The position numbers were made by a program, and so were the translations under genes. From Tagaea sp. (GTDB taxonomy: Bacteria; Pseudomonadota; Alphaproteobacteria; CACIAM-22H2), in NCBI GenBank assembly GCA_044224405.1, contig JBGAKN010000005.1:15725-79724 (forward strand): DNA of 64,000 nt, read 5' to 3'. The notes under the pieces are model-generated. The model worked only from the letters and a program-made list of their open reading frames with translations, ran no database searches and was not told the origin of the DNA. Shown one piece after another: positions 12,910 through 52,308 of the stretch. Positions within the stretch are counted from its first letter, which is position 1. Every line of letters starts with the position of its first letter.

Positions 12910-12921
12910 TACGGAAGTTCC

Positions 12922-19910: not shown

Positions 19911-19947
19911 CGCGAAGACCCCGTGAGGTGTTGGACGTTGTCGGCCG

Positions 19948-21138: not shown

Positions 21139-21168
21139 CTTGCGTGGCCGTTTCCCGTCTTGTCCGGT

Positions 21169-22221: not shown

Positions 22222-22258
22222 CGTGTCCTCGCCAAGCTTCCGTGCGCCTGCGGTCCGA

Positions 22259-23321: not shown

Positions 23322-24389
23322 TCAGGCGATCAGTGTTCCGGCGAGAATGCCGGCGGTAATCCTGTCGATCGCGTCGCCGTGCGCCGCGCGCACGGATCGC
23401 GCGACCTTCGGCGCTTCCGGTGCTGCGATCCAATCGGCTAGTCCGACTTCGTCGCGGATGACCGCGATGCCGAACTCGCTTTCGTTGAGGCAGAAATAGC
23501 TCGGGTTGGCGCCTGCCGGCCGGAACGACGCCGCCGGCACGCCGGCAATCGCGAGCTCGATCAACATCATCGAGGAAAGGCCGACTGCCATGCGCGTGGT
23601 CTCCGGGCAGACCCACGACGGATCGGCGTCGAGACGCACGTCCTGGGCACGATTGGCGAAGACGAAGCGCCGCCACCCCTCCGAATCGTCCTGAGGATGG
23701 GGGCGGATGACGACCGGAAGCGCCGGCCTCACTTTGTCGCGCGCGACGATCACCGACTTGGCGACGTCAAATTCGTGCACGTGAGCGTCCGGAAAAAGGG
23801 CGTTTGCCGGCTCGGAGATGAAACGCAGATCGCTGCCCCTGCCCGACACTGCATTGCGGGCGAGCAGGTCGGCGAAATGCGGATTGCCCGTGACCGTCGC
23901 GCGCACGCGCCCGTCGAAGGTCGTCCGGATATCGTCCGCCATGCGCTCATCCACGACGAGCATATGGTCGATGAGAAGTTCGCCGTCCCGCCCCTCGAGC
24001 CGGCGCCTATACTCGGTCCACATGTCGCAGATCGCCGCACAAGGAATGCCGCGCGCGCGAGCAAGCCTCCACGTGGTCTTCTCCATGGTGCTGACCGCGC
24101 TCGTGCCCGTCAGTACGCAGTCCCAGCCGCCGTCCGCGAGCAGGGCGTCGAGCTCCGCCTCGTCCAGATCCCATGCGAGCGCGCGCGTCGGCAGCACGGG
24201 CCGCCGCACGGGCGGAAGCCCGCTCGCGCGCGCCAGCATTTCGCCGACCTCGTATTCGACGACGGGCGTTCCCAGGAACGACGCTTCAATGCCGGTTCCG
24301 GGCGCACTCCACCGGCGCAGCAGCGGCACCAGCAGGTTGGTGCCACCGCGATCGTGGCCGACGAGAAGGACGCGGCGCGCTGCAGTCAT
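23322..24389 (-). CDS. hypothetical protein, possible GT-B-like (carries a beta-strand-HP motif, VVIRPHP)
   Basis: No confident family assignment. An HP motif after a hydrophobic strand is shared with three other locus proteins. Confidence 0.3.
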   Translation of the reverse strand: MTAARRVLLVGHDRGGTNLLVPLLRRWSAPGTGIEASFLGTPVVEYEVGEMLARASGLPPVRRPVLPTRALAWDLDEAELDALLADGGWDCVLTGTSAVSTMEKTTWRLARARGIPCAAICDMWTEYRRRLEGRDGELLIDHMLVVDERMADDIRTTFDGRVRATVTGNPHFADLLARNAVSGRGSDLRFISEPANALFPDAHVHEFDVAKSVIVARDKVRPALPVVIRPHPQDDSEGWRRFVFANRAQDVRLDADPSWVCPETTRMAVGLSSMMLIELAIAGVPAASFRPAGANPSYFCLNESEFGIAVIRDEVGLADWIAAPEAPKVARSVRAAHGDAIDRITAGILAGTLIA

Positions 24390-25738
24390 GCCGAAGCCAG
24401 TACGAGAAGGTCGGCCGAAACGAGCGCTTCGAGCGGACGCACAAGCGTCCAGACAGGGACGCCCATCCGATCAGCGATCGACAAAAGGTCGTGCTCGCCG
24501 TCGCCGAAGTTGAGAAGATTCAGGATCTTCACCTGGAAATCGGGAATGCCGGCGGAGACATACTGCGAGTAGAGGCCGCGCTTGCCGAGCTGCGGCTCGC
24601 ACATCGGGTTCGTCCGGATCGGACGACAGTTGGTCTCAATGGCCTGCACGAGGCGCAAATAGGCCTCAAGCGAGCCCTGCATCCCGGCTTCGCTGACGAA
24701 GTCGAGATTGTCCTTCGAGGTGTGATACTCGGCGAACTCGCCGTAACGCGACCGCATCAGCGATCCGACCGGCAAGTTGAGTCCCGGCGAGCAGTACTGG
24801 CGCTCGTCGCTGCCGACCGGGTCGAAGTCGCGCAGCAGGCAGGTCCGGCCTTTCGCCGCAGCCATGTGTCGCGCAACGTGCTCGCCCGCGCGGTCAATGA
24901 TCGTGCCGGCACGGCGCGAACGCAGGAACGTGAAAGGGCCGTCGTCACCGACGCAAGTAACGACGCTGCCTGCGATCATGTTGCGACTGAGCGCTTCGTG
25001 ATGCTGCGACAGGAACGCGATGGCGCCGATCGTCTCCGGCACGAACACGGCCCGGAAGCCGTAGGGCGCACCGGGGATTGCGCGCAGTGTCTCCATCAGC
25101 GCGGCCAGAAGAACGATGCCAGAAAGCTGGTCGTTGGCGAGTGAGGGGTGGCAGATATAGGTCGAGAAGAATATCTCGCCCGGGCTCTCCCCGGGCAGAC
25201 GGAGTTGCGCATAGTCGAGCGCACCCGGCGCGAGCGTGCTGTCGACCACCACTTCGTACTCGCCCTCGGGAAGCGCTTCGCGCTGGCGATGGGTGAGGCA
25301 GAAGCCCCAGTTCTCGTTGTAGTAGCTCGCGCGATAGGGAATCGCGTCGGGATAATCGGGCAGCGAATGCAGTTGCGGCTGCAGTTCGGCCAGCGTCATC
25401 TTGCGCCGCACCGGGCAGCTGTAGCTGACGAGATGGAGATTATTCGCCTTGAAATCGATGATGCGCCGGCCCGCAGCGTCCTTGATGTAAGCGTCGCGGA
25501 TATTCCACTCGTTTGGCACGCGCCAATCGAAGCAGGCGGTACCCGTCGGAACGCGGATGCGCTCGAGCTGCAGCGTCTCGCCGACCACGTCGAGTGTGTC
25601 GCGCACGCCGGCACCGGTGATGCTGCGGCAAAGCGGGAACAGCCGGTGCATGCGCGGCATCAAGGCCGGCAGACCGTCGGCGATCGCCTGCTCAATCGCG
25701 GCGGCGCGGGTGAAATGTCTGGAGGGTTCGAGGCTCAT
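24386..25738 (-). CDS. hypothetical protein, DUF4910/M28-peptidase-fold-like
   Basis: 450-aa protein resembling aminopeptidase-like domain proteins found in glycan and antibiotic clusters. This is a weak call. Confidence 0.3.
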   Translation of the reverse strand: MSLEPSRHFTRAAAIEQAIADGLPALMPRMHRLFPLCRSITGAGVRDTLDVVGETLQLERIRVPTGTACFDWRVPNEWNIRDAYIKDAAGRRIIDFKANNLHLVSYSCPVRRKMTLAELQPQLHSLPDYPDAIPYRASYYNENWGFCLTHRQREALPEGEYEVVVDSTLAPGALDYAQLRLPGESPGEIFFSTYICHPSLANDQLSGIVLLAALMETLRAIPGAPYGFRAVFVPETIGAIAFLSQHHEALSRNMIAGSVVTCVGDDGPFTFLRSRRAGTIIDRAGEHVARHMAAAKGRTCLLRDFDPVGSDERQYCSPGLNLPVGSLMRSRYGEFAEYHTSKDNLDFVSEAGMQGSLEAYLRLVQAIETNCRPIRTNPMCEPQLGKRGLYSQYVSAGIPDFQVKILNLLNFGDGEHDLLSIADRMGVPVWTLVRPLEALVSADLLVLASA

Positions 25739-25749
25739 CTGGGCTGCCG

Positions 25750-26574
25750 TCAGAGGAACGAATAGTCTTTGGTCGGGTCCGGCAGGCGGAAGCCCTCGCG
25801 GCTACGGAACTCCTTGAGATGGGCATTGCCCGGTACGGAGTACATGTAGTCGAGATAGGCCTGCAGGTTCGTCGGATTGGACGCGGCGATCGTGAAGAAG
25901 ATCGCATACTTGCCACCCGGCGGCATCTGCACGCCCGGCGCCTGGGGCGTCGCGCAATGGATCATGCGCATGTCCCACAGCACGCAATCGCCGGCGCGCG
26001 TCTCGATGGCCCGCGCGCGCGGATGATCGCGCATCTTCTTGTCCCAGTCGAAGATCCGGCCACCGCTGAAACGATGAAGAAGACGTCGCCACCACGAGTT
26101 GCGAACGAGCTTGCGCAGCGCGGCCTTTTCCGCCGTCAGCTTCACGTAAGGATCCGGTTCGAGATGCGAACCCGGCACCAGACTGATGCCACCGCCTCCG
26201 AAATTGTCCTGCAGATAGATCACCACAGTGACGATCCGGAAATCCGGCAACCGGTGGAAGCCGTTTCCACTCATCTCAGCGCCAGTCGTGTCGGTATGGA
26301 AAGCACCGAAGCCGTGCCGCGCGATCGAATGGTGCGGCACGAGAACGAAAGGGCTTCCCAGAACTTCGGCGAGACACTCGCGGAGCTGCGGCACGTCGAT
26401 GAGCTCGCGTACGCGCGGATAGGTGATGGCCGTCTCGTTGATGACGGTCCCGCCGAACTTGTCGAACTCGGCGGTTACGAAGTCGCGCCATTCGGCCATC
26501 CGCGCCTGCGGAATGACGCCGGGAACGACGAGATAGCCGTCGCGTCCGTACTGCTCGCGGTGGGACTGGGTCAT
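25750..26574 (-). CDS. phytanoyl-CoA dioxygenase (PhyH)-family Fe(II)/2-oxoglutarate oxygenase
   Basis: PhyH-like length and a HxD...H arrangement (HTDT...H). Start taken at MTQSHREQYGRDGY. Confidence 0.55.
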   Translation of the reverse strand: MTQSHREQYGRDGYLVVPGVIPQARMAEWRDFVTAEFDKFGGTVINETAITYPRVRELIDVPQLRECLAEVLGSPFVLVPHHSIARHGFGAFHTDTTGAEMSGNGFHRLPDFRIVTVVIYLQDNFGGGGISLVPGSHLEPDPYVKLTAEKAALRKLVRNSWWRRLLHRFSGGRIFDWDKKMRDHPRARAIETRAGDCVLWDMRMIHCATPQAPGVQMPPGGKYAIFFTIAASNPTNLQAYLDYMYSVPGNAHLKEFRSREGFRLPDPTKDYSFL

Positions 26575-28349
26575 GCGGAATGGCTCTCCGTTGCCGAACC
26601 CCGGCGCGAACTGGACCGGGCCTTGAGATCGTGGACGACCAGATCGAGAAGCTGGCGGATGTCCTGCACGCCCATCGCTGCTTCGTCGGAAAGACGCACG
26701 TCGAACATGTCCTCGACCATCGCCAGGAGCTGGACGTGGCCCAGCGAATCCCACTGCGCGATCGCCGTGCGCGGCGTGTCGAGCGAGATTTCGACCGGCG
26801 GAACCGCGAATAGCTGCGCGATCGAAGCGGTCAGCTTCGCGCCGATCGCGGCAACGTCGACGCCGCGCCCCGTCGTACGGCTGGCGACATAGAGCTCGAC
26901 GAGCCGGTCACGCACGACCTTGCCGAGCTTGTTGACCGGCAGCGCATCGATCTGAAGGATCTGTGTCGGCACCTTGTACGAGGCGACCCGCGAGCGGAGC
27001 GCGCCGAGCAGGCGCGGCGGCTCGATCGGCGCGTCGGAGGTCACGTAGGCGACGACGTCTTGGCCTAGGATCGGATGCGGCACGCCGACCGCGGCCGCCG
27101 ACCTGATCCCGGGAATCGCGCACAGCGCCTCCTCGATCTCCAGAGGGAAGATCTTGTACGCGCCGCGGCTGATCACCGTCTTCGCACGCCCGACAAGAAC
27201 GATGTTGCCGTCCGGATCGATGCGCCCGAGATCGCCGGTCTGCAGCCAGCCGTCGACGAAGCTGGGCGGTTCCGTGCCGATGAAGCGGCTCGCGACGTTG
27301 GGGCCCGTGACCTGGAGCTCCCCCACTTCGCCCACGTCCATCTCGATGCCGGCCGCATCGACGATGCGGACGCGGTTGACGTCGAGCGGAAGCCCCGCCA
27401 CGCCGGGCCGCCGGATCTTCGGATCGAGGCTGTTGAGCGCGATGCCGCACGTGCATTCCGTAAGGCCATAGCCCTGGAGCAGCGGGATTCCGAAACGCGT
27501 CTCAAAGGCGGCCTGGTCCGCAGGCGGAAGATAAGCCGAGGCAGTGCCTATGAAGCCCAGATGCGTACGCGTCGACGGCGCCGGCTCGGCGGGCGACCGG
27601 TTGAGGATCGCGACGTGGCTAGGCACGAGCTGGACGAACTCGATCTTGCCGTCCGCGATATCACGCCAGAACGTCTGCGGATCGAGCTTGCGGCGCATGT
27701 GGATCGTGCCGCCGGTCAGCAGCGGCATCAGCAGGCTGCGATAGAGGCCGGAAACATGCGCGTAGGTCAGGATCGACCCGTGCTGCATCGGGCGATCGAA
27801 AGCATAGGCGCGCAGCATCGAATCGAGTTCCGCGAGGATGTTCGCGTGCGTGTGGACGACGCCCTTGGGTTGGCCGGTCGTGCCGGAGGAGAAGATCGCG
27901 AAGGCCGGCGATTGGGCCGTGCTGTCCGGAGTGCGGCGCGTTGCATGCCCCGGCGTAGCCGACAGGTCGATGTTGCGCACGCCGTCGATATGCATGGTGC
28001 GTCGCACGACGGCTTCCGGACCGACAAGACGCACATAGTCGGCAAGCTGGGCGTCGGGAATCTCGGCGTCGAGCAGCGCAAGGCACGCACCCTGCCAAAG
28101 GCCGGCAAGGATCAGGGCGGCGAGCCGGCTCGAATTCTCCATACACACGAGCAGCGTCGCGCCGGGTCCGAGGCCCGCCCGGGAAAGTTCCTCGCGCACG
28201 GCGGCAACGTTCCCGTCCAACTCGGCATAAGTAAGCGTCGCCCCGGTGTCGAGATCGCGAAAGGCAACGCGCGCGCCATGCGCGTCGAAGGACTGCGCGA
28301 GCGCGGCGGCGACATTGGCGTATGACGTGATGCGTTGGTTCGATGCCAT
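26571..28349 (-). CDS. acyl-/aminoacyl-AMP ligase (adenylation domain) fused to an acyl-carrier-protein domain
   Basis: AMP-binding motifs (SSGTTGQPKGV, YGLTE, GDLGRIDPDGNI, GRAK) are followed by a C-terminal carrier domain with the phosphopantetheinylation motif DSLGHVQL. Confidence 0.7.
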   Translation of the reverse strand: MASNQRITSYANVAAALAQSFDAHGARVAFRDLDTGATLTYAELDGNVAAVREELSRAGLGPGATLLVCMENSSRLAALILAGLWQGACLALLDAEIPDAQLADYVRLVGPEAVVRRTMHIDGVRNIDLSATPGHATRRTPDSTAQSPAFAIFSSGTTGQPKGVVHTHANILAELDSMLRAYAFDRPMQHGSILTYAHVSGLYRSLLMPLLTGGTIHMRRKLDPQTFWRDIADGKIEFVQLVPSHVAILNRSPAEPAPSTRTHLGFIGTASAYLPPADQAAFETRFGIPLLQGYGLTECTCGIALNSLDPKIRRPGVAGLPLDVNRVRIVDAAGIEMDVGEVGELQVTGPNVASRFIGTEPPSFVDGWLQTGDLGRIDPDGNIVLVGRAKTVISRGAYKIFPLEIEEALCAIPGIRSAAAVGVPHPILGQDVVAYVTSDAPIEPPRLLGALRSRVASYKVPTQILQIDALPVNKLGKVVRDRLVELYVASRTTGRGVDVAAIGAKLTASIAQLFAVPPVEISLDTPRTAIAQWDSLGHVQLLAMVEDMFDVRLSDEAAMGVQDIRQLLDLVVHDLKARSSSRRGSATESHSA

Positions 28350-28378
28350 GATTCTCGTTCCGGTCGGGCGGCCGCTTG

Positions 28379-29176
28379 TTAGCGCGCCCAGGGACGGCGC
28401 TGTGGCGGTGCCGCCAGCAGGCCGTATATGTTCCGCTTCAGGATTGCCATCGTCGATTCGTACATGGCCGCCGCGCGATAGCACCACACGCCGCTGTCGC
28501 CGAGCGCCTCGAAGGCGACTTCGCCTCGATTCGTCATGCGATCGACCAGGCGGTTGGTATCCCACTCGATGTCGGAATCCCTCCATTTCACGTGGTGAAA
28601 ATAGGGGCCCGGCTGCACGCGGCTGCCGACGACGACGGGGATCGACAGTTCTTTACTGTAGCGGTAGGGCACGCCCGCGAAGACTTCGGCGAGGTGGATG
28701 AAGAACCCGCCGCGATGGGGCGAGCGGCCGATACTGACGACGAGCGCATCGCCCTCGACAAGCCGGTGCGTGACCGACCCGTAGCCGTAGGAATGCGCGG
28801 CAGCATTCTCGCAGAGTTCCTTCGCGCGCGGCCCTATGGCGGCAAACGAGAACACCGGATGCACCGACCGGCTGGCACCGGTCCGGACACGCAAATGCTC
28901 GCTGACCGCGCCGGTTTCCGAAGCACTCGTCTCGTGCACGTAGGGACTGTCCGGACCGGTACGGTGATAGGTGAACGTCGGCGCGCAAAGCGTCACGCCA
29001 TCACCCGCCGCCTCGTTAAGCGCGTCGTAGAGAGCGGCCACGCCGGCCCGCTCCCCCGCCCCCGCCCCGCGGCCAAGCGCGGCAAGGTCCGTGATGACGA
29101 CGACATATCGTTGGCCGGCCACGCCGAGACGTCCGAAAAGCGAGCGGATTTCACCGATGTCGACGCCTGCGAACAT
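28379..29176 (-). CDS. AAC(3)-family (Antibiotic_NAT-like) N-acyltransferase
   Basis: 265-aa protein with AAC(3)-like features (GVTLCAPTFTY, HLAEV). Confidence 0.45.
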   Translation of the reverse strand: MFAGVDIGEIRSLFGRLGVAGQRYVVVITDLAALGRGAGAGERAGVAALYDALNEAAGDGVTLCAPTFTYHRTGPDSPYVHETSASETGAVSEHLRVRTGASRSVHPVFSFAAIGPRAKELCENAAAHSYGYGSVTHRLVEGDALVVSIGRSPHRGGFFIHLAEVFAGVPYRYSKELSIPVVVGSRVQPGPYFHHVKWRDSDIEWDTNRLVDRMTNRGEVAFEALGDSGVWCYRAAAMYESTMAILKRNIYGLLAAPPQRRPWAR

Positions 29177-29186
29177 CCCTCTCGGC

Positions 29187-30032
29187 CTAGCGCTTCTTGA
29201 ACGCGCACACGAGCGAGCGCGACGCTTCGCCGAAGGGCTCGAGCGCGAACGACCCGTGGAAGGACGCCTCGAATCCGAGCGCCTGCGCGATCGCGGAGAG
29301 CTCGCGTACTGAGAAAAACTTGTAAAGCTCGCGCTTCTCGCGGGCGCCGCCGCCGGCGCGTGGCAGGTAGATCGACAGGTTCTGCACGACCATGTGCGCC
29401 CAATCGACTATCGTCGTCTCGTAGAGCGCGTAGACGAACGCATCGCGGTCATCGCCCTTGTGCCAGGTTCGCGTGCGCGTATCCCGCCGTAGCGCGTCGA
29501 GCTGGGTCGGCGAAAGCACGTCGAACTCCATCAGCAGGAGCCCGCCGGGCACGAGAACTCTGGCCGCCTCGGCCGCGATTCGCCGGGGCAACGCCACGTC
29601 GCAGGGATAGAGATAGGACAGCGCGCCGTCGATCGCGATCGCGAGATCGAGCGGCCGATCGGGCCATGCGAACGCGCCGGCCGACATGTTGACGTTCCGC
29701 ACGCGCGTTGCGCCGAGGGCTAATCCCCACTCCTGCGCGAAACGGTGCCGCGAGGCCGAGACCTCGACCCCCGTGCCGCTTCCGAGCATACCCGCCGCGT
29801 CCAGCGCGTAGAGAAGCCTGCCGCTTCCAGCGCAGAGTTCGAGCACGTCTAGGCGGCGGCCGGCCGGCGCGAGCTTGCGGATCGCGTCCACGGCATCGGC
29901 CGACTTCCGCAGCAGCAGCGAACGATATGCCTCGAGTGCCGCGACGTCGGGATAGTTCGACGCGGCCTCGACCTCGGCATAGGCGGCCTCGTTGACCTTC
30001 GGGTCCCAGGTGATCGGCGGATACGGTTCCAT
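29187..30032 (-). CDS. class I SAM-dependent methyltransferase
   Basis: Motif LELCAGSGRLL is present. Start taken at MEPYPPITW to avoid a 56-nt overlap with the upstream gene. Confidence 0.5.
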   Translation of the reverse strand: MEPYPPITWDPKVNEAAYAEVEAASNYPDVAALEAYRSLLLRKSADAVDAIRKLAPAGRRLDVLELCAGSGRLLYALDAAGMLGSGTGVEVSASRHRFAQEWGLALGATRVRNVNMSAGAFAWPDRPLDLAIAIDGALSYLYPCDVALPRRIAAEAARVLVPGGLLLMEFDVLSPTQLDALRRDTRTRTWHKGDDRDAFVYALYETTIVDWAHMVVQNLSIYLPRAGGGAREKRELYKFFSVRELSAIAQALGFEASFHGSFALEPFGEASRSLVCAFKKR

Positions 30033-30045
30033 CTTCTGTACGTCC

Positions 30046-31737
30046 TCAGGCCTTTGCGGCTTCGATCCGCTTGAGAATGCGCTCGGCAGAAAGGAAATCA
30101 CCCATCCTCGCCTCGAAGGTCGGCGCGTCCATGACGATCAGGTCGATGTAGGTAAGAAACTGCGCCATGTCGTCGCCCGACAACTGTTCGAAAACCGACC
30201 GCTGCGCCACATAGGTCGGCTTGTCGTACGGATACGGATACTGGGCCACCCAGTGGTAGACGAAATAGAACAGCAGCGCGAGATCGCGGCGACGCTCGTC
30301 GAGCGACCCCGCCGCCGCGACGGCCGGCAGGCTCTTCAGATGGTCGAAATACTCCTGCCGAGTCTTCGCGTCGTACGTGAAGCCGCGATGCGAATAGACG
30401 ACGTCGCTGGCGACGGCCACGTGCTTTCCCATGGTAGCCATCTCGAGCCCCGTCGAGGACGAGAAAACGACGCCGTAGAGGCAGCGCTCCATCAGCCGAT
30501 AGGTGTTCACCTTGGCTTGGCCGGGGATGATCACGAGCCGCTCACCCGGCGAGATTCCCGACGTCGCGAGCAACTGGTGGACCGGATCCCTGCCGCCCCA
30601 CCAGAGCCCCTCGCCGGGGTGCGCTCGCACGACGACGACTTCGTCGGTCTCGCGCAGCAGGTATTCGACCGTCTGCACGAGCCATTCGCGCATGGTCGGA
30701 AACAGGTTCGTGATCTTCCCATACCCCGCGTCGAACACGACGTTCGGGCAGACGAGGACGAACGGGCGTTCGGGGTCGATACCCGCGGTGCGGAACGCCT
30801 CGGCGGTTGATTGGTCGACCGCGCGTTGGAGCTCCCAGAGCCATGTTTCGGTTGAATTCTGCGACCGCGCGCGAATCGACCCCAAAGCCTGCGCAACGAA
30901 GCGCGAGAAATACGGCTCGGCCGTGTAGCCCAGCTCCTCGCGCTTGCGCCAGATGGCACCAATGTCATCTCCGGCCAGGAAATGGTCGCCGTGGTTGATG
31001 ACCCGCACGCCCCGGAAGGCGAACTTCTCGGTGCCGTTGACCTCGTGCCCGAACTCGCGCAGGACCCGACAGGCGTGCGATCCCTCAAACGTTGTGCCGT
31101 TGCCGACGATGCAAATGTCGTATCGGTGCTTCGAGAAATGGTTCCGGAGCGCGATCTGGGCCGTGCGGCCTGCCGCGTTCATGTGATCCAGCAGCGCCCG
31201 GATGGCCGGATCCTGCATGTCGATATTCTCGCGCTGCAGGGCCATGACCATGTCATAGCGTGCCTGCTTCTCGACCGCGGTCTCGTCGAACGCGACGGGC
31301 GCCAGATCGTCTGACAGGTCGATCGTGCGGATCGCGCCGCGGCTGAGGCGCTCGACCTGCGCCAGCGCCGCCTTGAGATAGGGCTTCGCGGTCGGCGAAT
31401 CGGCCAGCGGTTGCTTGTTCGGGCTCTGCAGCTTTGGCAGGTAACCGAGCGTGATCCGATGCCCGCGCCAGGCGAGCATCACGGCCAGCAACAGATGCGA
31501 CGTGAACACGCCGCGATAAGCCACGAATATGAAGACATGGCGCGACGGCGGCAGCGGTTCGCGGCGAGGCGCGGCGAGGCCGTCGATCCACGCCGGCACC
31601 ATCACGTGCAGGTTCCACTTGTCGTTCGGTAGCAACTGGCGCACCAGCGGCGACAGCAGCGAGATCACCGCACGCCCGACCGGCCCCGGATGCCGATGCG
31701 CATAGAACCGGCCGAAGATCCCGTCGACGAGCCCCAT
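30046..31737 (-). CDS. capsule-polysaccharide-biosynthesis (KpsS/KpsC-like, Capsule_synth) family protein, candidate CMP-ulosonate transferase
   Basis: GT-B-like C-terminus with VVVRAHPGEG and SSSTGLEMATMGKHV. It is a paralog of 31776-33374. Start taken at MGLVDGI. Confidence 0.45.
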   Translation of the reverse strand: MGLVDGIFGRFYAHRHPGPVGRAVISLLSPLVRQLLPNDKWNLHVMVPAWIDGLAAPRREPLPPSRHVFIFVAYRGVFTSHLLLAVMLAWRGHRITLGYLPKLQSPNKQPLADSPTAKPYLKAALAQVERLSRGAIRTIDLSDDLAPVAFDETAVEKQARYDMVMALQRENIDMQDPAIRALLDHMNAAGRTAQIALRNHFSKHRYDICIVGNGTTFEGSHACRVLREFGHEVNGTEKFAFRGVRVINHGDHFLAGDDIGAIWRKREELGYTAEPYFSRFVAQALGSIRARSQNSTETWLWELQRAVDQSTAEAFRTAGIDPERPFVLVCPNVVFDAGYGKITNLFPTMREWLVQTVEYLLRETDEVVVVRAHPGEGLWWGGRDPVHQLLATSGISPGERLVIIPGQAKVNTYRLMERCLYGVVFSSSTGLEMATMGKHVAVASDVVYSHRGFTYDAKTRQEYFDHLKSLPAVAAAGSLDERRRDLALLFYFVYHWVAQYPYPYDKPTYVAQRSVFEQLSGDDMAQFLTYIDLIVMDAPTFEARMGDFLSAERILKRIEAAKA

Positions 31738-31775
31738 GGACCGCCATTTCAGGACCTCGCGGATGCGCCGGAGAA

Positions 31776-33374
31776 TCACGCCCGCCCCCCCAGGCAGCCG
31801 CGCACGACCCGCCAGACGTTGTAGCTGTCGATCGACGCCCCGAGCCATTCGCGTATCAGCTCGACCTCGTCGTACAGCGCCGGGCGCGCGGCAAGAAGCT
31901 GGCGCGCCACCGCCGGATGCAGGCTGCCGTCGAGAACCCGCGTGTCGCAGGTGAGTGTCAGCGTGTCCGCGCCGGCCGGCGGCGCCAGCGCGGTCGCCGC
32001 GAATGCGAAGGCGCGCTCGCTCTGCTCGGCCGTGGGCGGTGCCAGATCGGCGATTCCGCGCAGCAGGCGCTCGTAATCCTCGCGCGAGGTCGCACAGTGG
32101 GTGAAGCCCCAGTCGGTGTACATGCTCCGATCGGCGCACAGCACGGGCTTGCCCATCGCGGCCGCCTCGATGCCGATCGAACCATGGATCGTGACGAAGA
32201 CGTCGGCCGCTTCCTGCATGGCCAGCGAATCGGTCCGCTCGGGTACGATGCGGATATTGGGCGGCAGCTTGCCAATCAGGTCGGAAATCCGGAGGTCGTC
32301 GTACCAGAGGTCGCACGGATGCGGCTTGATAGCCCAGTTGAGATGCGTGAGCGGGCGGATGGTCTCGATCGTATGGAGCAGCCAGTCCAGCGGCTCGGTG
32401 AAATTGCGCATCGCCTGCGTGTGGGGGAAGTCATACCACGCATGGGAATAGACGACGGCGAGCTTGCGCGAGGGATCGAAACCGAATTCGCGGAGGAACT
32501 GCTCGCGCGAACGGCCGCGCTGTTCGGCATGGACCGAATAGCGCAGCACGACGAAATCGGATCGCCCGGCGTAACGCTCGTCGAGATATTCGCGGCCGCG
32601 CGCGACCAGCGCGGCACGCGCTTCGACCGGCAGCGCCTGATACTCGTCAAAACGCAGATGCTCGTTGGGCGCGCGGTAGTCGTCCGGCCGGCGCATGCGG
32701 CGAATACGGATGCTGCCGTAGTGGGCCGTCATGTAGAAAAACGGGACGCTGCGCCGGATCGCTTGCCAGCACAGCGCAGCCCACTCGTTCTTCCAGGCAT
32801 GGCTCGACACGACCCCGGTGACGCGATTGTCGGCGAACAGGCCGGAATAGAAGTCCGACCAGCGCAGGAGGTCGGCGACGGTCTCGCGCCATACCGGATT
32901 GCCTTCGACGGTCGGCTGCGGATGCCGCAGTCGCTTGAGCGCGGTATCGACGAAGACATAAGCCGGCATCTCGTCCGGGAGCTCAAGCGACAGCAGGTCG
33001 CGCAGCGTCCGCGGCCGGCCCAAGATCTCGTCCGCACGGCGCAGATGGCCTTCTTCGGTCGGCGCAGGATGCTCGAAGCGCACGACGCCCAGCGCCTCGA
33101 GATTCCGCCGGCTGTCCGCATAGATGGCCGACGTCGGCTCCTGCATCACGGCAACGACATCGGCCGGACGATCCTTGAGCGCGGCATGAAGGAACATCCA
33201 CAGCCGCAGCCAGTGATTCGGATTCGACCACATGCCCTCGACGACCAGCGTGTCGCGTGCGCCGTGGCTGATCGGCGGACGGCTGGCGCGCAGAAGCGCG
33301 CGGATCGCCCACATCCAGAGGCCATCACGCGTGCGCCGAACGACGGCGCGGAGTCTTTCGTGGAATCGGGACAT
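31776..33374 (-). CDS. capsule-polysaccharide-biosynthesis (Capsule_synth) family protein, candidate CMP-ulosonate transferase
   Basis: Contains WAIKPHP and HGSIGIEAAAMGKPV, paralogous to 30046-31737. Confidence 0.45.
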   Translation of the reverse strand: MSRFHERLRAVVRRTRDGLWMWAIRALLRASRPPISHGARDTLVVEGMWSNPNHWLRLWMFLHAALKDRPADVVAVMQEPTSAIYADSRRNLEALGVVRFEHPAPTEEGHLRRADEILGRPRTLRDLLSLELPDEMPAYVFVDTALKRLRHPQPTVEGNPVWRETVADLLRWSDFYSGLFADNRVTGVVSSHAWKNEWAALCWQAIRRSVPFFYMTAHYGSIRIRRMRRPDDYRAPNEHLRFDEYQALPVEARAALVARGREYLDERYAGRSDFVVLRYSVHAEQRGRSREQFLREFGFDPSRKLAVVYSHAWYDFPHTQAMRNFTEPLDWLLHTIETIRPLTHLNWAIKPHPCDLWYDDLRISDLIGKLPPNIRIVPERTDSLAMQEAADVFVTIHGSIGIEAAAMGKPVLCADRSMYTDWGFTHCATSREDYERLLRGIADLAPPTAEQSERAFAFAATALAPPAGADTLTLTCDTRVLDGSLHPAVARQLLAARPALYDEVELIREWLGASIDSYNVWRVVRGCLGGRA

Positions 33375-33378
33375 CGCT

Positions 33379-33957
33379 CTATGCGGCGCGGATCGCGCCC
33401 TCGAAACGGGTGCGGATATGCGCCTTGGAAAGCGGGATCACGCCGACGCCGTCGGGCATGCCCACCGCAGTACGGACGACAATAACGTGCGGTCCGACGG
33501 TCCCGAAAGCATCAGCGAGCGCCTGTCGCGCTTCGCCGGGCCGCTCCACGGTCCGCACGCTGTCGATGCCTGCTGCGCGCGCAACCGCATCGAGGCGCAG
33601 GCGGCCGGCGGTGAAAGACGGCTGGAAGCCGGTCGAGCCGTTGGCGGCGTTGTCGATGATTATCTGGACGAGGTTTCCCGGCCGAAGGTGCCCCAGCGTC
33701 GCGAAGGCGCCCATGTTCATCGTGACCGACGCATCCCCGTCGATCGCCACGACGGGCCGCGCGGTCGACAGGGCCACGCCCAGCGCCACGCTCGTCGCCA
33801 GCCCCATCGAACCGAGCATGTAGAAGTTCTGGGCGCGGTCGCGGATCCTGAAGAGTTCCTGCGCCGGATGGCCCAGATTGCACACGACCAGGGCATCGCC
33901 GAAAGCTTCGGCCAGTTCCTGGAGCGCCTCGTAGCGCCGATAAGGATTGGTCTTCAC
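33379..33957 (-). CDS. thiamine-diphosphate-dependent decarboxylase, beta subunit (ComE / phosphonopyruvate-decarboxylase-like)
   Basis: 192-aa ThDP-binding C-terminal-type domain (GSMGLATSVALG, GDAS..MN). Confidence 0.6.
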   Translation of the reverse strand: MKTNPYRRYEALQELAEAFGDALVVCNLGHPAQELFRIRDRAQNFYMLGSMGLATSVALGVALSTARPVVAIDGDASVTMNMGAFATLGHLRPGNLVQIIIDNAANGSTGFQPSFTAGRLRLDAVARAAGIDSVRTVERPGEARQALADAFGTVGPHVIVVRTAVGMPDGVGVIPLSKAHIRTRFEGAIRAA

Positions 33958-34520
33958 TTCGCGACCCTCCAGTACGAGAACGGCAGCAGGATCGCCAGCG
34001 AGCTCGCCGCAAGCGCGCTCTCGCGCAACGCGTCGGCGACCAGCGGCAGATCGGAAACGGCACCGGCCGTCGCGTGCCGGATACCCACCAAATCAAAAAG
34101 CGACTGGGTGATGCCGCCCATCATCCTCTGCGCTTCGATCGGCTCGCCATCGCTGCCGCGATGGCTGACGATGAACGTCATCGGCATCGCGTAGTAGTTG
34201 ACCAGAGCCATGATGGCGTTGATCGAATTTCCGAGCCCCGAATTCTGCATCACGATCGCCGGCCGCTTTCCGGCGAGGCCGGCGCCGAACGCGATGCCCA
34301 GCCCTTCTTCCTCGCGCGAAACCGGGCTGTGAAAAACCGCCTGGTCCGTGGCCAAGCGGTCGATGAGGTCGCTGAGAAGCTTGCAAGGCACGGAAACGAA
34401 GAAATCGAGCTTCGCCGCGCGCAGCACGTCATAGAGCGCCGCCGTCGGGTCGGCGGCAACCGGCGCGCTCGGCCTTTGCATAACCATATTCCTGTCACTC
34501 ATGCCTGGTTCACCTCCCAA
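33954..34520 (-). CDS. thiamine-diphosphate-dependent decarboxylase, alpha subunit (ComD / phosphonopyruvate-decarboxylase-like)
   Basis: 188-aa ThDP-enzyme N-terminal pyrimidine-binding-type domain. It overlaps the beta-subunit start by 4 nt. Confidence 0.6.
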   Translation of the reverse strand: MGGEPGMSDRNMVMQRPSAPVAADPTAALYDVLRAAKLDFFVSVPCKLLSDLIDRLATDQAVFHSPVSREEEGLGIAFGAGLAGKRPAIVMQNSGLGNSINAIMALVNYYAMPMTFIVSHRGSDGEPIEAQRMMGGITQSLFDLVGIRHATAGAVSDLPLVADALRESALAASSLAILLPFSYWRVAK

Positions 34521-34524
34521 AAAT

Positions 34525-35904
34525 TCACGCAGCCGCGCGCGATTCGACGAAATCGGCCAACCGGAGCGCGTATGGCGCTTCGAACGGCGTCACGAAAAAC
34601 TCGGTTGCCCGTTTCAACTGGGCGGCAAAGCCGACGTCGCGCGAACGCGCGACGATCTCGGCGACGCCGGCCGCGAGTTCGCCGCGCCCGCTGGCGATCG
34701 CGAATTCAGGCCGCTCGAAAAAGTCGCCGAAATGCACGAATTCCCGATTGATCGACAAGAACCAATTGCCGACATCGGCATCGTCCACGAAACAGAGCGG
34801 CGGCTTGCCGTTCATCGCGGCCTCGAGAAGGATCGTCGAAAGCGGCGAGACGACCGCATCGACGCTGGCCAGCACGTCCCGCGTGTGGCGATAGTCGGGC
34901 GTGGTGATGCCTTGTCGGCCGGCGCCGGCACGTCGGACATACTCGGCCATCGTCGTTTCGAAGGCGACATGCTTCCAGGCGCGGGCCGCGATCCGGCCGC
35001 CATCACGCCCGCAATTGCCCCATGGATGCGGCCGGTAGACGATCGACACGCCGGCGAGCCGGCCGCTTTCGACCTCGCGTTCGAGCACGTCAAGATCCGC
35101 GTACTCGTCGCACCCCTTGCTTGAGCCGGCGTAGAGCACGACGGTGCGCGCCGGATCAATGGCGTGCCGCCGGCAGAACTCGTCACGATCCATCGACGGT
35201 GGCGAACGATAGACTTCGAACTGCGCCGCACCGAACTCGACGACCGATTCGGACGGCATGCCCGCGAACCGCAGCGCATGGGCGCGCGTCTGGGGGCCCC
35301 AGACCAGCAGCCGATCCGGGTGGCCCACCATCGCCCTTTTGGTCGAGGGGTTGTCCCACGAATTCATGATCGCCACGAGCGGCGTGTGCCGACGCCCGAG
35401 GACGTCGACGAGATCGTTCAGATAGAGGCCCGAGAGGACCGTCGGATGCACCACCGCGTCCGGACGCTCCGCTTCGAGCAGGGCCTCGAGCGCCGCGCAT
35501 CCCACGCGCAAGGCCTTCGCCAGCAGTATCCGCCGATAGACGGGCCACACGAACGGTAGGCCGTAGAACCGGTAGATGCGTGCCGTCCATTCGCCGATCG
35601 CGTTGGCGTGGTGGCGCGCCACTGCCGAAGTGTGCGGGTCAAGCCTCCCGCGCAGGCTGTCGATCTGGAACATCCGCTGCCAGATCGCGTTGCGCTCAGC
35701 TGATTCCGGAAGGCGGATCAGGCGGTCGGCAGGCAGCATCGAGATGTCGAGCTCGCGAATGCGCTTGTGGCCTTCCGGAAGGGTCACGTAGCGCACATCG
35801 TGCCGGGACTCGATCTCCGCGAACGCGCCCGACGCGACGAAATGCCGGACGATGATCGGATGATCGAGAAAGACGAGGACCTTGAGGCGTCGGGACACGC
35901 TCAA
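34525..35904 (-). CDS. hypothetical GT-B-like protein (HP motif SIVYRPHPWG)
   Basis: 459 aa. No confident family; an HP motif is shared with 23322, 30046 and 31776. Confidence 0.3.
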   Translation of the reverse strand: MSVSRRLKVLVFLDHPIIVRHFVASGAFAEIESRHDVRYVTLPEGHKRIRELDISMLPADRLIRLPESAERNAIWQRMFQIDSLRGRLDPHTSAVARHHANAIGEWTARIYRFYGLPFVWPVYRRILLAKALRVGCAALEALLEAERPDAVVHPTVLSGLYLNDLVDVLGRRHTPLVAIMNSWDNPSTKRAMVGHPDRLLVWGPQTRAHALRFAGMPSESVVEFGAAQFEVYRSPPSMDRDEFCRRHAIDPARTVVLYAGSSKGCDEYADLDVLEREVESGRLAGVSIVYRPHPWGNCGRDGGRIAARAWKHVAFETTMAEYVRRAGAGRQGITTPDYRHTRDVLASVDAVVSPLSTILLEAAMNGKPPLCFVDDADVGNWFLSINREFVHFGDFFERPEFAIASGRGELAAGVAEIVARSRDVGFAAQLKRATEFFVTPFEAPYALRLADFVESRAAA

Positions 35905-36620
35905 CCGCTCCGTTCGCCCGACGCGAGCAACACCTTCTCGACTGCGGCAAAATCGTCTTCGGTGTCGATCGAGACCGCCGGGCCGTGCGCCACGACCGCG
36001 CCGCTGCGCGCGCCCATGATTGCGCCATGCTCAAGAAGGCAGGTGCGCGAGAACGCGTAACTCAATCCGTTCCGGTAATAGACCGGCACGAGCTGCTGGC
36101 GCGCGATGATCTGGCCGCCTTCGGGGTCCCAATAACGGAGACTGCCGCCCTCGCCCACCACGAGCGCCTTCATCGGATGGTACTTGATGTCGGCAGGCGA
36201 CACGGTCCACACCGCATCGAGCCCCTCGTCGACCAGCTTGACGAAGGTCGCTCGGACAAGGTCGGCGGTCCGCAGCGGCGAGGTCGGCTGCAGCATGAGC
36301 ACCACGTCGTACCGTACGCCGTCGATGCGCTCGCATTCGTGCAGCGCATGGCGCAGGACCTCAAGATCGCCGATGCGGTCGCCCGAAAGATGTTCCGGGC
36401 GACGGAACGGCGCCGCCAGCCCCGATGCCTCGGCGACTTTCACGATCTCCTCGTGATCGGTCGACACCACGGCACGATCGATATCGGCGATCGAGCGCAC
36501 CAGATGGCCGACGCGGGCCACGATCGGCACGCCCAGCACGGTACGGAGGTTCTTGAGCTTGACGCCCTTGCTGCCCCCGCGGGCCGGGCATACCGCCAGA
36601 ATGCGCGCGTTCTTGTACAT
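35901..36620 (-). CDS. N-acylneuraminate (nonulosonate) cytidylyltransferase, NeuA/KdsB-like
   Basis: Canonical N-terminus AVCPARGGSKGVKLKNL of CMP-sialic/ulosonic acid synthetases. Confidence 0.75.
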   Translation of the reverse strand: MYKNARILAVCPARGGSKGVKLKNLRTVLGVPIVARVGHLVRSIADIDRAVVSTDHEEIVKVAEASGLAAPFRRPEHLSGDRIGDLEVLRHALHECERIDGVRYDVVLMLQPTSPLRTADLVRATFVKLVDEGLDAVWTVSPADIKYHPMKALVVGEGGSLRYWDPEGGQIIARQQLVPVYYRNGLSYAFSRTCLLEHGAIMGARSGAVVAHGPAVSIDTEDDFAAVEKVLLASGERSG

Positions 36621-39562: not shown

Positions 39563-39613
39563 GGCAGGTTTCCGGAAAGGGGCGGGAAGGTTTTGCGGGG
39601 CGGCCGGTTACGT

Positions 39614-40708: not shown

Positions 40709-40889
40709 TTTCCTGGTCGTGAGCTGGTGGAGGGGACGGTTGGCGGGGCCTGGAAAGCTACCGCACAGCGGGTGCAGGCAGAGCCTGCAGGCCGACAGGA
40801 GACGGGCGAGGCAGCCCGCGTTCCGAAGACGTCTGGAGGGACGTTGTTCGTGGCGTGAACATAGAGGGCAAGACCCTCCCGGTCAAGAC

Positions 40890-43931: not shown

Positions 43932-44025
43932 ATGCGGCCGCTGGAAACGCTGATCAATTTCCGGCTCTCGCTATGCTGCCCAAGTTGTTGGGAAGAAAAA
44001 AGAAACGTCGACAATTCGGCTCGAC

Positions 44026-50928: not shown

Positions 50929-50967
50929 GGTCGGTATGCTTTCGGGTCGGGTGTTGATGCGGCCGCT

Positions 50968-52222: not shown

Positions 52223-52308
52223 GTCAACCGTTGTTAGCCTCCGGTTTTTTCTGACATATCAACCCATTATGCTCACCCCTGCGACATCGAACCAGAACCG
52301 GAGCGCCC

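Follow-up and report, generated by a model that had tools for sequence, protein, structure and literature searches.

Two known enzyme lineages provide the nearest relatives of three of the four proteins considered here. KpsC and KpsS (GT107; Capsule_synth, PF05159) are retaining beta-Kdo transferases, and the KpsC-N peptide carries the QXXXD nucleophile motif as QTFND160 (PMC10148158). One KpsS homologue, KpsS1 of Acinetobacter baumannii, is described as a proven retaining Pse5Ac7Ac pseudaminyltransferase (GT118; cited in PMC12887879). The second lineage comprises TagF, TagB and TarL (PF04464); TarL has a W299-H300...K306 loop and needs H433 for activity (PMC10901376). TagB-like proteins with an HP motif include the genetically validated Pse/Leg transferases of Tannerella (BFO_1060 family, NF046086; PMC5420450). 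A counter-example is Bacillus subtilis SpsB, also TagB-like with HP motifs, which adjoins a legionaminic acid pathway and yet is dispensable for Leg transfer (PMC7439481). As for the sugars, Alphaproteobacteria are known to make K antigens and LPS containing pseudaminic acid (Pse) (PMC4881576), and a 5-O-methyl-Kdn polysaccharide is reported for Sinorhizobium fredii (cited in PMC9000132).

We analysed a stretch of 64,000 nucleotides from Tagaea sp. (hereafter the window), in which four minus-strand genes encode proteins A (23322-24389, 355 aa), B (30046-31737, 563 aa if started at ATG 31737, 577 aa if at GTG 31779), C (31776-33374, 532 aa) and D (34525-35904, 459 aa); all other features given below lie on the same strand. 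B, C and D are distant relatives of the two lineages above. We propose that they are divergent nonulosonate transferases, with C and B acting on CMP-Pse, D on a KDN-like donor and A as an outlier of uncertain role, a reading to which we incline with modest confidence.

The gene content supports production of CMP-pseudaminic acid by this locus. A block for pseudaminic acid biosynthesis at 18765-23296 encodes a WbuX-type amidotransferase (18765-20000), PseC (19948-21138), PseI (21169-22221) and PseB (22259-23296), the last three above NCBIfam equivalog cut-offs. At 42486-43970, a PseG domain just below its NCBIfam cut-off is fused to a GNAT acetyltransferase domain with a possible PseH role. A second ulosonate pathway comprises a NeuB-cupin fusion (38027-39562; an ulosonate synthase joined to a lyxose/mannose-isomerase-like cupin), a HAD protein and two CTP_transf_3 cytidylyltransferases, which bears out an earlier claim, made in the first-pass annotation, that the locus makes at least two CMP-activated ulosonic acids. 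One cytidylyltransferase (35901-36620), of CMP-ulosonate synthetase type and PseF-like below cut-off, is translationally coupled to D, whose TTG start overlaps its TGA stop (TTGA); the other (12922-13719) scores best, again below cut-off, against KdsB-type models. The NeuB-cupin fusion is our proposed source of the donor sugar of D. A tailoring block kept with A, B and C (24386-30101) encodes DUF4910, PhyH dioxygenase, AMP-binding-PCP, AAC(3)-like N-acyltransferase and methyltransferase proteins.

All four proteins share a strand-[R/K]-[P/A]-H-P element, and translation of the ORFs returns exactly the strings first reported: VVIRPHP in A (H231; 23694-23714), VVVRAHP in B (H373; 30616-30636), WAIKPHP in C (H352; 32316-32336) and SIVYRPHP, continuing as RPHPW, in D (H293; 35023-35046). 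AlphaFold2 models predict a GT-B fold for A and D, in which HP immediately follows a beta-strand in the C-terminal Rossmann domain (residues 226-229, pLDDT 87.3, in A; residues 286-291, pLDDT 92.5, in D). A scan of the window's 48 predicted proteins (18.6 kaa) for [hydrophobic]x3-[RK]-[PA]-H-P gives four occurrences, all in A-D, against 0.04 occurrences expected from residue shuffles, a figure that is descriptive only because the pattern was set after the data had been seen; HP dipeptides overall number 38. The His-Pro pair is invariant in the orthologue alignments of A (19/19), C (21/21), D (48/48) and B (48/48), the last at a mean identity of 28% and with W352, H373 and P374 as the sole invariant residues. 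In A the invariant stretch is RPHP, in D RPHPW. The reading of the four as GT-B-type proteins that each conserve an HP is supported. As a hallmark of sialyl- and Kdo transferases, HP is not diagnostic: the dipeptide is not specific to them, because the TagF-family phosphotransferase TarL has it (H433-P434), and the HP histidine also aligns with a conserved His of Escherichia coli UDP-GlcNAc 2-epimerase. The D/E-D/E-G sialyltransferase motif is conserved in none of A, B, C or D.

The proteins had been called paralogous or similar. They are two lineages and an outlier, not one paralogous set, and B and C are the only pair that is plainly homologous (BLASTP, 25% over 166 aa; hhalign, 99.3%, E 9e-21, 397 columns covering both domains). 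Other hhalign values descend from B-D (85.5%) through C-D (69%), A-D (57%) and A-B (33%) to A-C (1%, not significant). When the family profiles are compared pairwise, the HP motifs line up in five of six cases, A-C being the exception. The kinship of A shows at profile level only.

B and C are deep relatives of KpsC/KpsS that score below threshold, with superfamily membership visible at family level only. The first-pass annotation overstated the case in naming two clear Capsule_synth members: the gathering score is 20, and B reaches 16.8 bits and C 16.4 bits. Each of B, C and D stays below the curated cut-off of the family it resembles. The Capsule_synth model is nevertheless matched by 36 of 48 B relatives (best E 8.7e-10) and 16 of 21 C relatives. 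The B-family profile also matches KpsC crystal structures (E 6e-4 to 3e-3), placing RaHP over KVHP and aligning an S..G.E...G.PV...Y..G.T block. The QTFND160 peptide of KpsC-N aligns to NVVFD in B (D336; 30730-30744) and to H/Q-xxx-D in C, where the window protein reads HAWYD (D315; 32430-32444). B-family members retain N in 45/48 cases and D in 47/48; those of the C family open the motif with H (18/21) or Q (3/21), and D is retained in 21/21. The start of B may be GTG 31779 instead of ATG 31737, since this codon overlaps the C stop (GTGA), and the adjacent C-B pair is probably translationally coupled.

Synteny in other genomes ties C and B to pseudaminic acid genes and supports a link between D and the second pathway. 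In at least eight alphaproteobacterial genomes, among them cultured Magnetovibrio blakemorei MV-1 with the pse-C-B order, C lies directly after a complete pse operon (after pseI), and B is usually next. The order pseB-pseC-wbuX-cytidylyltransferase-pseG/H-pseI-C-B is kept in comparison loci L008-L013 and L015; L014 shows the same order as far as C, where the sequence ends. The cytidylyltransferase in the PseF position of these operons is a homologue of 12922-13719. C and B are also adjacent in L001, L002 and L007. The set GFO / NeuB-cupin / (HAD) / methyltransferase / CTP_transf_3 / D recurs in five contexts (the window, L001, L003, L004 and L024), and D-like proteins lie directly 3' of C in L016, L018 and L019; in L023 and L025, D has no adjoining cytidylyltransferase or NeuB gene. 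A co-occurs with the N-acyl tailoring block (acyl-activation, N-acyltransferase and DUF4910 genes) and, in the loci compared, never with the minimal pse-C-B arrangement. Synteny supports the idea of several distinct Pse/KDN-like transferases for C, B and D, and the assignment of A as a transferase is not established. C is the best candidate pseudaminyltransferase.

D itself has no match to Glyphos_transf (PF04464), a model matched by 20 of its 48 orthologues (best E 6.7e-7). By a local match of 67 residues (E 2.4e-6, 26.9 bits against a cut-off of 200), D appears weakly linked to the Tannerella family NF046086. H293 aligns with the leaving-group histidine H433 of TarL, and by motif resemblance we infer that the WDNPSTK loop (W183-D184; 35338-35358), invariant in 48/48, is the counterpart of W299-H300...K306, with Asp replacing the catalytic His. 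D is thus indeed TagF-like, an outcome once named as contrary to a transferase role along with loss of the HP, which is invariant in all four orthologue sets. A TagF-like D does not refute a nonulosonate role, because the validated Tannerella transferases are TagB-like proteins with HP.

A is the more remote GT-B protein, of uncertain role, either a transferase or a nucleotide-sugar-processing enzyme. Structure searches with A and D return generic GT-B enzymes, mostly UDP/TDP-dependent; UDP-GlcNAc 2-epimerases and hydrolysing NeuC lead TarL/TagF by a small margin and the GT38 polysialyltransferase by a wide one. For neither protein do the top 60 neighbours include KpsC or the sialyltransferases of GT52 and GT80, whose structures had been suggested for comparison.

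Our model proposes donors, an acceptor, a stereochemical course and a division of labour for these plausible new and very divergent nonulosonate transferases. We predict that three of the four most likely decorate a cell-surface glycan with two rare sialic-acid-like sugars, pseudaminic acid and a KDN-like one. All would be soluble or peripheral GT-B-fold enzymes in which the His of the strand-R/K-x-H-P element of the C-terminal Rossmann domain holds or protonates the phosphate of a cytidine-nucleotide donor. C and B, as very divergent KpsC/KpsS-like members of the superfamily of GT107, GT118 and GT99, would take CMP-pseudaminic acid from the adjoining pse genes by a retaining double displacement, as in that superfamily: the sugar would become covalently attached to the conserved Asp (D315 in C, D336 in B) as CMP leaves with help from the HP His, and an acceptor hydroxyl would then resolve this adduct. 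C would be the primary pseudaminyltransferase, with B adding a second residue or extending the chain. For D, the proposed sugar to be transferred is a KDN-like ulosonic acid, probably O-methylated, which the NeuB-cupin/HAD module would make and the product of the CTP_transf_3 gene overlapping the D start would activate. Transfer would take one step, Asp184 serving as the base and His293 contacting the CMP phosphate, in the manner of inverting bacterial sialyltransferases and of the TagB-like enzymes of Tannerella. A might transfer a tailored sugar or process a nucleotide-linked intermediate. Assembly of the glycan would take place on the inner side of the membrane, the acceptor being either lipid-linked or lipid A-core, and a PglK/MsbA-like ABC transporter would export it.

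Other readings account for parts of this evidence. B and C could be beta-Kdo transferases in the KpsS/KpsC role, supplying a short Kdo linker or Kdo residues and lying near pse genes only from serving the same polysaccharide; Capsule_synth/KpsC is their only family affinity, both the catalytic Asp and the HP found in retaining Kdo transferases are preserved, and the 12922-13719 enzyme leans towards KdsB-type models. We consider this improbable: no kpsF/kpsU-type paralogues were seen in the loci where pseI directly precedes C, the homologue of that same cytidylyltransferase stands in the PseF position there, no KpsM/T/E/D-type export genes were found among the annotated window genes, and KpsS1, as described in the citing paper, already provides a KpsS homologue that uses CMP-Pse. 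D could be a true TagF-like phosphotransferase, using a CDP-activated donor to add a polyol or sugar phosphate to the glycan, as do TagB/TagF/TarL and TagF-like capsule polymerases. The Glyphos_transf matches of its orthologues and the alignment of H293 with the TarL histidine favour this, and we still find it hard to credit, given that no TagD/TarI/IspD-type cytidylyltransferase or polyol-phosphate pathway adjoins D, its coupled neighbour belongs to a family making CMP-ulosonates, the inferred match to the catalytic W-H is an invariant W-D, and the Tannerella family is also matched.

The structure rankings and the syntenic company of A, with tailoring genes instead of the minimal pse-C-B unit, would suit an A (less likely a D) that is a nucleotide-sugar hydrolase or 2-epimerase-like enzyme, freeing or remodelling an intermediate such as the alternatively N-acylated UDP-sugar of the tailoring block by a step like that of PseG or NeuC. 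As the same epimerases also head the results for D, a protein with TagF-like sequence affinity, this ranking does not discriminate. Compared with E. coli WecB by hhalign, A reaches 0.5% and D 5.5%, far below A-D or B-D. The window's A matches no Pfam model at E up to 1 and bears no similarity to the PseG domain of the window, and Epimerase_2 is matched by 0/48 D-family members. We judge such an activity unlikely. Least credible, and in our opinion very improbable, is that the shared HP is generic or due to chance among four functionally unrelated glycosyltransferases using UDP, GDP or dTDP sugars. The abundance of HP dipeptides, the epimerase His at the same position and the UDP/TDP-dependent structural neighbours could be read in this way, but the extended motif is confined to A-D in the window, invariant across distant orthologues, in register between families and aligned with the functional HP of CMP/CDP-dependent KpsC and TarL.

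Several features set the four proteins apart from the closest known systems. A-D lack the conserved D/E-D/E-G of the GT38/GT52/GT80 sialyltransferases and any sequence-level match to them, and differ from UDP-GlcNAc 2-epimerases, including hydrolysing NeuC/LegG, in having H-P where the epimerase motif is H-L-N-P. Compared with TagF/TagB/TarL and their catalytic Trp-His, D has an invariant Trp-Asp at the putative equivalent position and an adjoining enzyme that makes CMP-sugars, not CDP-alcohols. Like Tanf_01245 / TFUB4_00887 / BFO_1060 of Tannerella forsythia (Pse-/Leg-derivative transferases), D is a TagB/TagF-like GT-B protein with HP encoded beside a nonulosonate pathway; it has neither D/E-D/E-G nor DXD as a conserved motif, originates in another phylum, and is partnered by a NeuB-cupin (KDN-like) pathway, not Pse or Leg. 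B and C share with KpsC the C-terminal-domain block, in which V-H-P and the S..G.E...G.PV...Y..G.T segment align, and a QXXXD Asp at a similar spacing from HP (37 residues, versus 34 in KpsC-N), though the motif opens with N in B and with H in C (Q in 3 of 21 C relatives). As with KpsS and KpsC, two related transferase units stand side by side; one KpsC module has ~325 aa against 530-580 aa for B and C, their partner is a pse operon instead of Kdo or kps export genes, and their predicted donor is CMP-Pse. KpsS1 is reported to be 30% identical to E. coli KpsS, from which B and C are far more remote, and is likened to them here by its description. It belongs to the same superfamily, is encoded beside Pse biosynthesis genes as B and C are, and offers a precedent for a KpsS-like enzyme acting on CMP-pseudaminic acid.

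Four minus-strand genes of the window encode proteins in which a His-Pro (HP) dipeptide follows a hydrophobic stretch. These are A (23322-24389; 355 aa, VVIRPHP), B (30046-31737; 563 aa, VVVRAHP), C (31776-33374; 532 aa, WAIKPHP), and D (34525-35904; 459 aa, SIVYRPHP); translation gives exactly the motif strings quoted in the first-pass annotation. The window has a G+C content of 64-69% and holds a single dense run of minus-strand genes from ~39.6 kb down to 18.8 kb. D and the cytidylyltransferase gene upstream of it overlap as TTGA, the TTG start of the one running into the TGA stop of the other. For B, either ATG 31737 or GTG 31779 can serve as start; the latter forms GTGA with the TGA stop codon of C and is probably the true start (577 aa), since the orthologue P0165 reaches ~26 residues past the ATG start. 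A 756-aa ORF (30046-32316) was rejected as the B gene because it over-extends into C. Very long antisense ORFs lie opposite real genes (31917-33485 and 38048-40858, plus strand, 522 and 936 aa, among others); their codon-position G+C marks them as artefacts of the G+C-rich sequence.

The HP observation is confirmed, and conservation weighs more in its favor than pattern counts. The 48 predicted proteins of the window hold 38 HP dipeptides. The extended element (3 hydrophobic residues, R/K, P/A, H, P) occurs 4 times, all in A to D, against 0.04 expected from shuffles; this pattern was chosen after the fact, and the expectation is descriptive only. His-Pro is invariant in 19 orthologues of A, 21 of C, and 48 of D. 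Across 48 diverse members of the B family (28% mean identity), the sole invariant columns are W352, H373, and P374. In AlphaFold2 models of A (pLDDT 87.3) and D (92.5), HP comes directly after a beta-strand of the C-terminal Rossmann domain. Variation of HP among orthologues was part of what the first-pass annotation named as speaking against its claim; the dipeptide is kept in all 4 families. The D/E-D/E-G motif of GT38/52/80 sialyltransferases has no conserved copy in any of the 4 proteins: their only [DE][DE]G, EEG107 of C, is retained in 1 of 21 orthologues.

The predicted gene content makes the window a surface glycan locus of the LPS or capsule type. PseB, PseC, and PseI of the pseudaminic acid (Pse) pathway exceed their cut-offs (514 bits vs 408, 431 vs 424, and 480 vs 340), and a PseG domain, fused to a GNAT domain, reaches 140 bits against a cut-off of 154. 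Also encoded are a WbuX-type amidotransferase, two CTP_transf_3 cytidylyltransferases (12922-13719 and 35901-36620), and a second NeuB synthase (38027-39562, minus strand) fused to a D-lyxose/D-mannose isomerase-like cupin, together with a HAD phosphatase-like protein, a GFO/IDH/MocA oxidoreductase, and several methyltransferases. A PglK/MsbA-like ABC transporter, LptD, and GT2, GT4, and GT9 enzymes complete the inventory. The premise that at least 2 CMP-activated ulosonic acids are made here holds. The predicted products are CMP-Pse, probably with an N-acyl modification, and a second CMP-ulosonate; the NeuB-cupin set may be a self-contained KDN-like pathway with a ketose as its start. A tailoring block (24386-30101, minus strand) comprises a DUF4910/DUF2172/HTH_47 protein, a PhyH dioxygenase, an AMP-binding-PCP protein, an AAC(3)-like N-acyltransferase, and a methyltransferase; it looks like a carrier-protein-dependent N-acylation/tailoring route for pseudaminic acid.

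Several further genes extend this picture. A split TPP enzyme pair lies between C and D (33379-34520, minus strand) and scores 147.2 bits vs 147.95 and 183 vs 221.5 against sulfopyruvate decarboxylase alpha and beta, with phosphonopyruvate decarboxylase lower; no PEP mutase was seen among the annotated genes. The same pair occurs just upstream of C-B in one related locus (L002, 5914-9766), where its neighbors on either side are a PALP enzyme and an aldehyde dehydrogenase; the nonulosonate may owe an unusual sulfo- or phosphono-acyl group to this pair. The PglK/MsbA-like transporter is a fused-type ABC exporter (11053-12921, minus strand) that matches PglK and MsbA best, below cut-offs, and recurs in L002, L004, L023, L024, and L025, beside both the C/B/A and the D modules, which hints that a lipid-linked glycan is flipped, in place of a KpsMT- or Wzx-type route. 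Two additional DegT-type aminotransferases (14681-15958; 49783-50967, minus strand) and an asparagine synthase-like amidotransferase (52255-54222, plus strand) are present, and more than 1 amino sugar is probably made in the 64-kb window. A NusG/RfaH-like protein is encoded at 50968-51576 (minus strand); the operon may be under RfaH-type antitermination.

The 4 proteins had been described as paralogous or similar. BLASTP links a single pair, B and C (25% over 166 aa), and profile-profile comparison of these two gives 99.3% (E 9e-21) over 397 columns and both domains. Values for the other pairs are 85.5% (B-D), 69% (C-D), 57% (A-D), 33% (A-B), and 1% (A-C). The HP element and the helix that follows (xxE-A/L-A-x-G-x-P) are in register in all pairs except the non-significant A-C. 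B and C are thus ancient paralogues within a single family, and A and D form separate families with a nucleotide-binding GT-B half in common with B/C; "four paralogues" is too strong.

B and C point to the capsule enzymes KpsC and KpsS. They score 16.8 and 16.4 bits against Pfam Capsule_synth (PF05159; KpsC/KpsS, GT107), below the gathering score of 20, so that calling them clear members was an overstatement. The affinity is real at the family level, as judged from relatives: 36/48 of B (best E 8.7e-10) and 16/21 of C (best E 5.5e-4) match the model. When the B-family profile was run against PDB sequences, KpsC crystal structures were the only significant matches (E 6e-4 to 3e-3), with RaHP of B aligned on KVHP of KpsC and the S..G.E...G.PV...Y..G.T block aligned as well. 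Only this profile helped: PDB searches with the profiles of A, C, and D gave no significant match, and single-sequence PDB searches were of no use for A, B, or D and reached just E 0.07 to KpsC for C. The KpsC/WbbB architecture of families GT99, GT107, and GT118 is a modified GT-B fold with a general-base Glu in the N-terminal domain; a conserved Glu in B (E218, 41/48) and C (E197, 21/21) is a candidate counterpart of the KpsC general base Glu66.

The beta-Kdo transferases KpsC and WbbB are retaining enzymes with a double-displacement mechanism, in which Kdo becomes covalently attached to the Asp of an invariant QXXXD and a His helps CMP to leave (PMC10148158). The KpsC-N peptide 148-192 printed in that paper includes QTFND160. 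We joined it to the profile-aligned stretch in a MAFFT fragment alignment, in which HP falls on HP; the correspondence rests on this alignment, as HMMER local alignment gave no extension from HP back to QXXXD. QTFND160 falls on NVVFD336 of B (N in 45/48 relatives, D in 47/48) and on HAWYD315 of C (H in 18/21, Q in 3/21, D in 21/21). The Asp is thus kept in both families and the Gln replaced in most members. Conservation of Asp and HP fits, without proving, retaining KpsC-type chemistry in B and C. KpsS1 of Acinetobacter baumannii, a KpsS homologue, is cited in PMC12887879 as a proven retaining pseudaminyltransferase and founder of GT118.

D leans toward a different scaffold. D itself has no Pfam match at E up to 1, Glyphos_transf (PF04464; TagF/TagB/TarL) included; that family is matched by 20/48 D orthologues at E up to 0.01 (best 6.7e-7). 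The D-family profile reaches just E 0.07 against TarL, with vvvYRPHPW on VVLFKMHPF and H293 aligned with H433. TagF-like phosphotransferases have two invariant catalytic His (H444/H584 in TagF, H300/H433 in TarL). In TarL, H433 touches the alpha-phosphate and activity depends on it, and the base of TagF/TarL is a His stacked on the preceding Trp in a loop after an N-domain strand (W299-H300...K306 in TarL; PMC10901376). D has an invariant loop, NSW183-D184-NPSTK189, after strand 176-180. By motif likeness, not alignment, we infer that Asp184 may replace the catalytic first His of TagF/TarL. Such an exchange is expected if the acceptor hydroxyl that D activates is to attack an anomeric carbon and not phosphorus.

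D also matches NCBIfam NF046086 (BFO_1060 family glycosyltransferase) with 26.9 bits (E 2.4e-6; cut-off 200), over residues 195-261 only. Tanf_01245 and TFUB4_00887, whose orthologue in strain 92A2 is BFO_1060, transfer Pse and Leg derivatives in Tannerella forsythia; their role was established by knockout and complementation, and they are TagB-like with an HP motif (PMC5420450). The first-pass annotation had taken a TagF-like fold as part of the grounds for dropping its idea. D literally has that affinity, yet the idea survives, since the Tannerella enzymes are TagB-like themselves; a TagF-like assignment does not exclude a nonulosonate transferase because the HP element marks CMP/CDP-dependent GT-B enzymes generally. 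Caution is nevertheless due: Bacillus subtilis SpsB, which is TagB-like, has HP motifs, and adjoins a legionaminic acid pathway, was not needed for Leg transfer (PMC7439481).

Structure comparison adds little for A and D. The D model finds NeuC and 2-epimerases (scores 20.5-21.8), TarL (20.1, 15% identity), TagF (17.8), Bcs3 (16.8), and a GT38 polysialyltransferase (16.2), and Foldseek gave the same picture. KpsC and the GT52 and GT80 sialyltransferases, whose structures were proposed earlier for comparison, are absent from the top 60 neighbors of A and D. The ranking is uninformative on function, since the same epimerases head both lists and yet the sequence affinity of D is TagF-like. An hhalign control against Escherichia coli WecB gave 0.5% for A and 5.5% for D, and Epimerase_2 has no Pfam match in A, in D, or in any of 48 D-family members; A or D as an epimerase was rejected as lacking sequence support, the structural likeness being high but generic. 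D H293 falls on the His of YPVHLNP in WecB, so GT-B enzymes generally have a His behind this strand; the form H-P is common to the CMP/CDP-dependent branches, KpsC and TagF/TarL and, per the literature, sialyltransferases. A PseG-like hydrolase was likewise rejected for A, which has no profile similarity to the PseG domain of the window. The match of A to NCBIfam TIGR04396 (surface carbohydrate biosynthesis protein; 17.4 bits, cut-off 125) covers only residues 220-241, the HP element.

Gene order in other genomes separates the 4 proteins by partner. We scanned one genome per species for relatives of C and read gene order by tblastn with the window proteins. The 17 loci with C relatives are mostly from Alphaproteobacteria (Rhodoplanes, Kiloniellaceae, Rhizobiaceae, Xanthobacteraceae, Devosia, Rhodospirillales, and the cultured Magnetovibrio blakemorei MV-1); outside this class are a Prochlorococcus single-cell genome and a Phycisphaerae MAG. 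The order pseB-pseC-wbuX-cytidylyltransferase-pseG/H-pseI-C-B is found in L008, L009, L010, L011 (without wbuX), L012, L013 (partial), and L015; L014 has the pse order of L008 as far as C, where the available sequence ends. Guilt by association with Pse is therefore strong for C and good for B. In L016, L018, and L019, a D-like protein (37-40% identical to D) follows C in place of B. In L016 (Prochlorococcus) and L018 (Phycisphaerae), the C-like and D-like genes adjoin, at 28-39% identity; the pairing of a KpsC-like with a TagF-like HP protein therefore recurs across phyla. Plasmid relatives, searched for a link to the Sinorhizobium rkp-3 region, were none for C and weak matches to hypothetical proteins for B and D.

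The order C-B-methyltransferase-N-acyltransferase-AMP/PCP-PhyH-DUF4910-A is kept in L002 and L007 and rearranged in L001 (the same locus as L006). A is found only where the tailoring block is found, and synteny therefore points away from a simple transferase role for it. In L001, an Alphaproteobacteria MAG locus, A and C are separated by an ABC-2-like transporter pair, and B is split at ~residue 289 into ORFs of 298 and 262 aa (11635-13310), through a frameshift, as a pseudogene, or by assembly error. The unit of GFO, NeuB-cupin, (HAD), methyltransferases, CTP_transf_3, and D is shared by the window, L001, L003, L004/L005, and L024, and its NeuB-cupin set is kept in at least 5 unrelated contigs. 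In L003 the NeuB-cupin/D unit adjoins LptD/LptE and GT9. NeuB-cupin/CTP_transf_3/D was not found in L023 or L025; the association of D with the second ulosonate is therefore good, though not universal.

From these lines we infer donors, acceptors, and stereochemistry for the mechanism that is most probable. C and B would belong to the KpsC/KpsS superfamily as pseudaminyltransferases that retain configuration by double displacement: C, whose gene is invariably attached to pseI, would act first, and B would add a further residue or extend the chain. D would transfer a KDN-like sugar in one step (inverting), Asp184 serving as base and His293 engaging the CMP phosphate. A is a GT-B enzyme of the tailoring branch and may act there as a transferase or in nucleotide-sugar processing. 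Alphaproteobacteria offer precedents in Pse-containing K antigens and LPS (PMC4881576) and in a 5-O-methyl-Kdn polysaccharide of Sinorhizobium fredii cited in PMC9000132. The most far-reaching form of the proposal, in which C initiates and B extends an oligo- or poly-Pse on lipid or lipid A-core and D is the first KDN-type transferase on a TagF scaffold, we regard as rather improbable.

The rival readings draw on the same affinities. The kinship of D with TagF and TarL would suit a true polyol- or sugar-phosphate transferase, which we consider unlikely: no CDP-alcohol pathway adjoins D, a CTP_transf_3 gene is coupled to it, and the loop reads Trp-Asp. It is about equally doubtful that B and C are Kdo transferases like KpsC itself, as their place directly after pseI is fixed and kps-type genes are absent among those annotated. 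For A, both synteny and the top structural matches favor a nucleotide-sugar hydrolase or epimerase-like enzyme; this reading comes without any sequence link, and we regard it as somewhat less improbable than the preceding two. A generic or chance origin of the shared HP motif has the generality of a His after this strand on its side and the invariance of His-Pro in 4 families against it; it is very improbable.

To our knowledge, very few transferases for bacterial nonulosonic acids beyond Neu5Ac have been characterized. The list consists of Maf and FlmG, which act on flagellin, of KpsS1 (GT118), and of the Tannerella enzymes defined by genetics; the literature consulted on other aspects of the locus describes no bacterial KDN transferase. 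The families of A to D are unnamed, have no characterized member, and fall below the cut-off of every curated model tested. Families C and B are both rare (~20 sequence clusters for C with its closest set, all called hypothetical), with 2,435 representatives of the B/C family at E up to 1e-3; the D family is common (>500 clusters, mostly environmental Alphaproteobacteria). As predictions, the 4 proteins are well-motivated, testable candidates in an enzyme class with few examples, and C and B are cheap pseudaminyltransferase targets because they lie directly behind complete pse operons. If the proposal is true, C/B would be the pseudaminic acid counterpart of KpsS/KpsC in Alphaproteobacteria, representing one or two new CAZy families, and D would show a phosphotransferase fold turned into a CMP-ulosonate glycosyltransferase by exchange of a catalytic His for Asp. 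Should D prove to move a KDN-like sugar, an LPS or capsule module of wide occurrence would gain an annotation, and glyco-engineering would gain new tools for placing Pse- or KDN-type sugars. For annotation, the lesson is to read the HP element as a sign of CMP/CDP-dependent GT-B enzymes in general. KpsS/KpsC-like ulosonate transferases, one of them a pseudaminyltransferase, and TagB-like nonulosonate transferases are already known; among the window proteins, B and C have another residue in place of the Gln of QXXXD, and D appears to have lost the catalytic His of its scaffold to a replacement.
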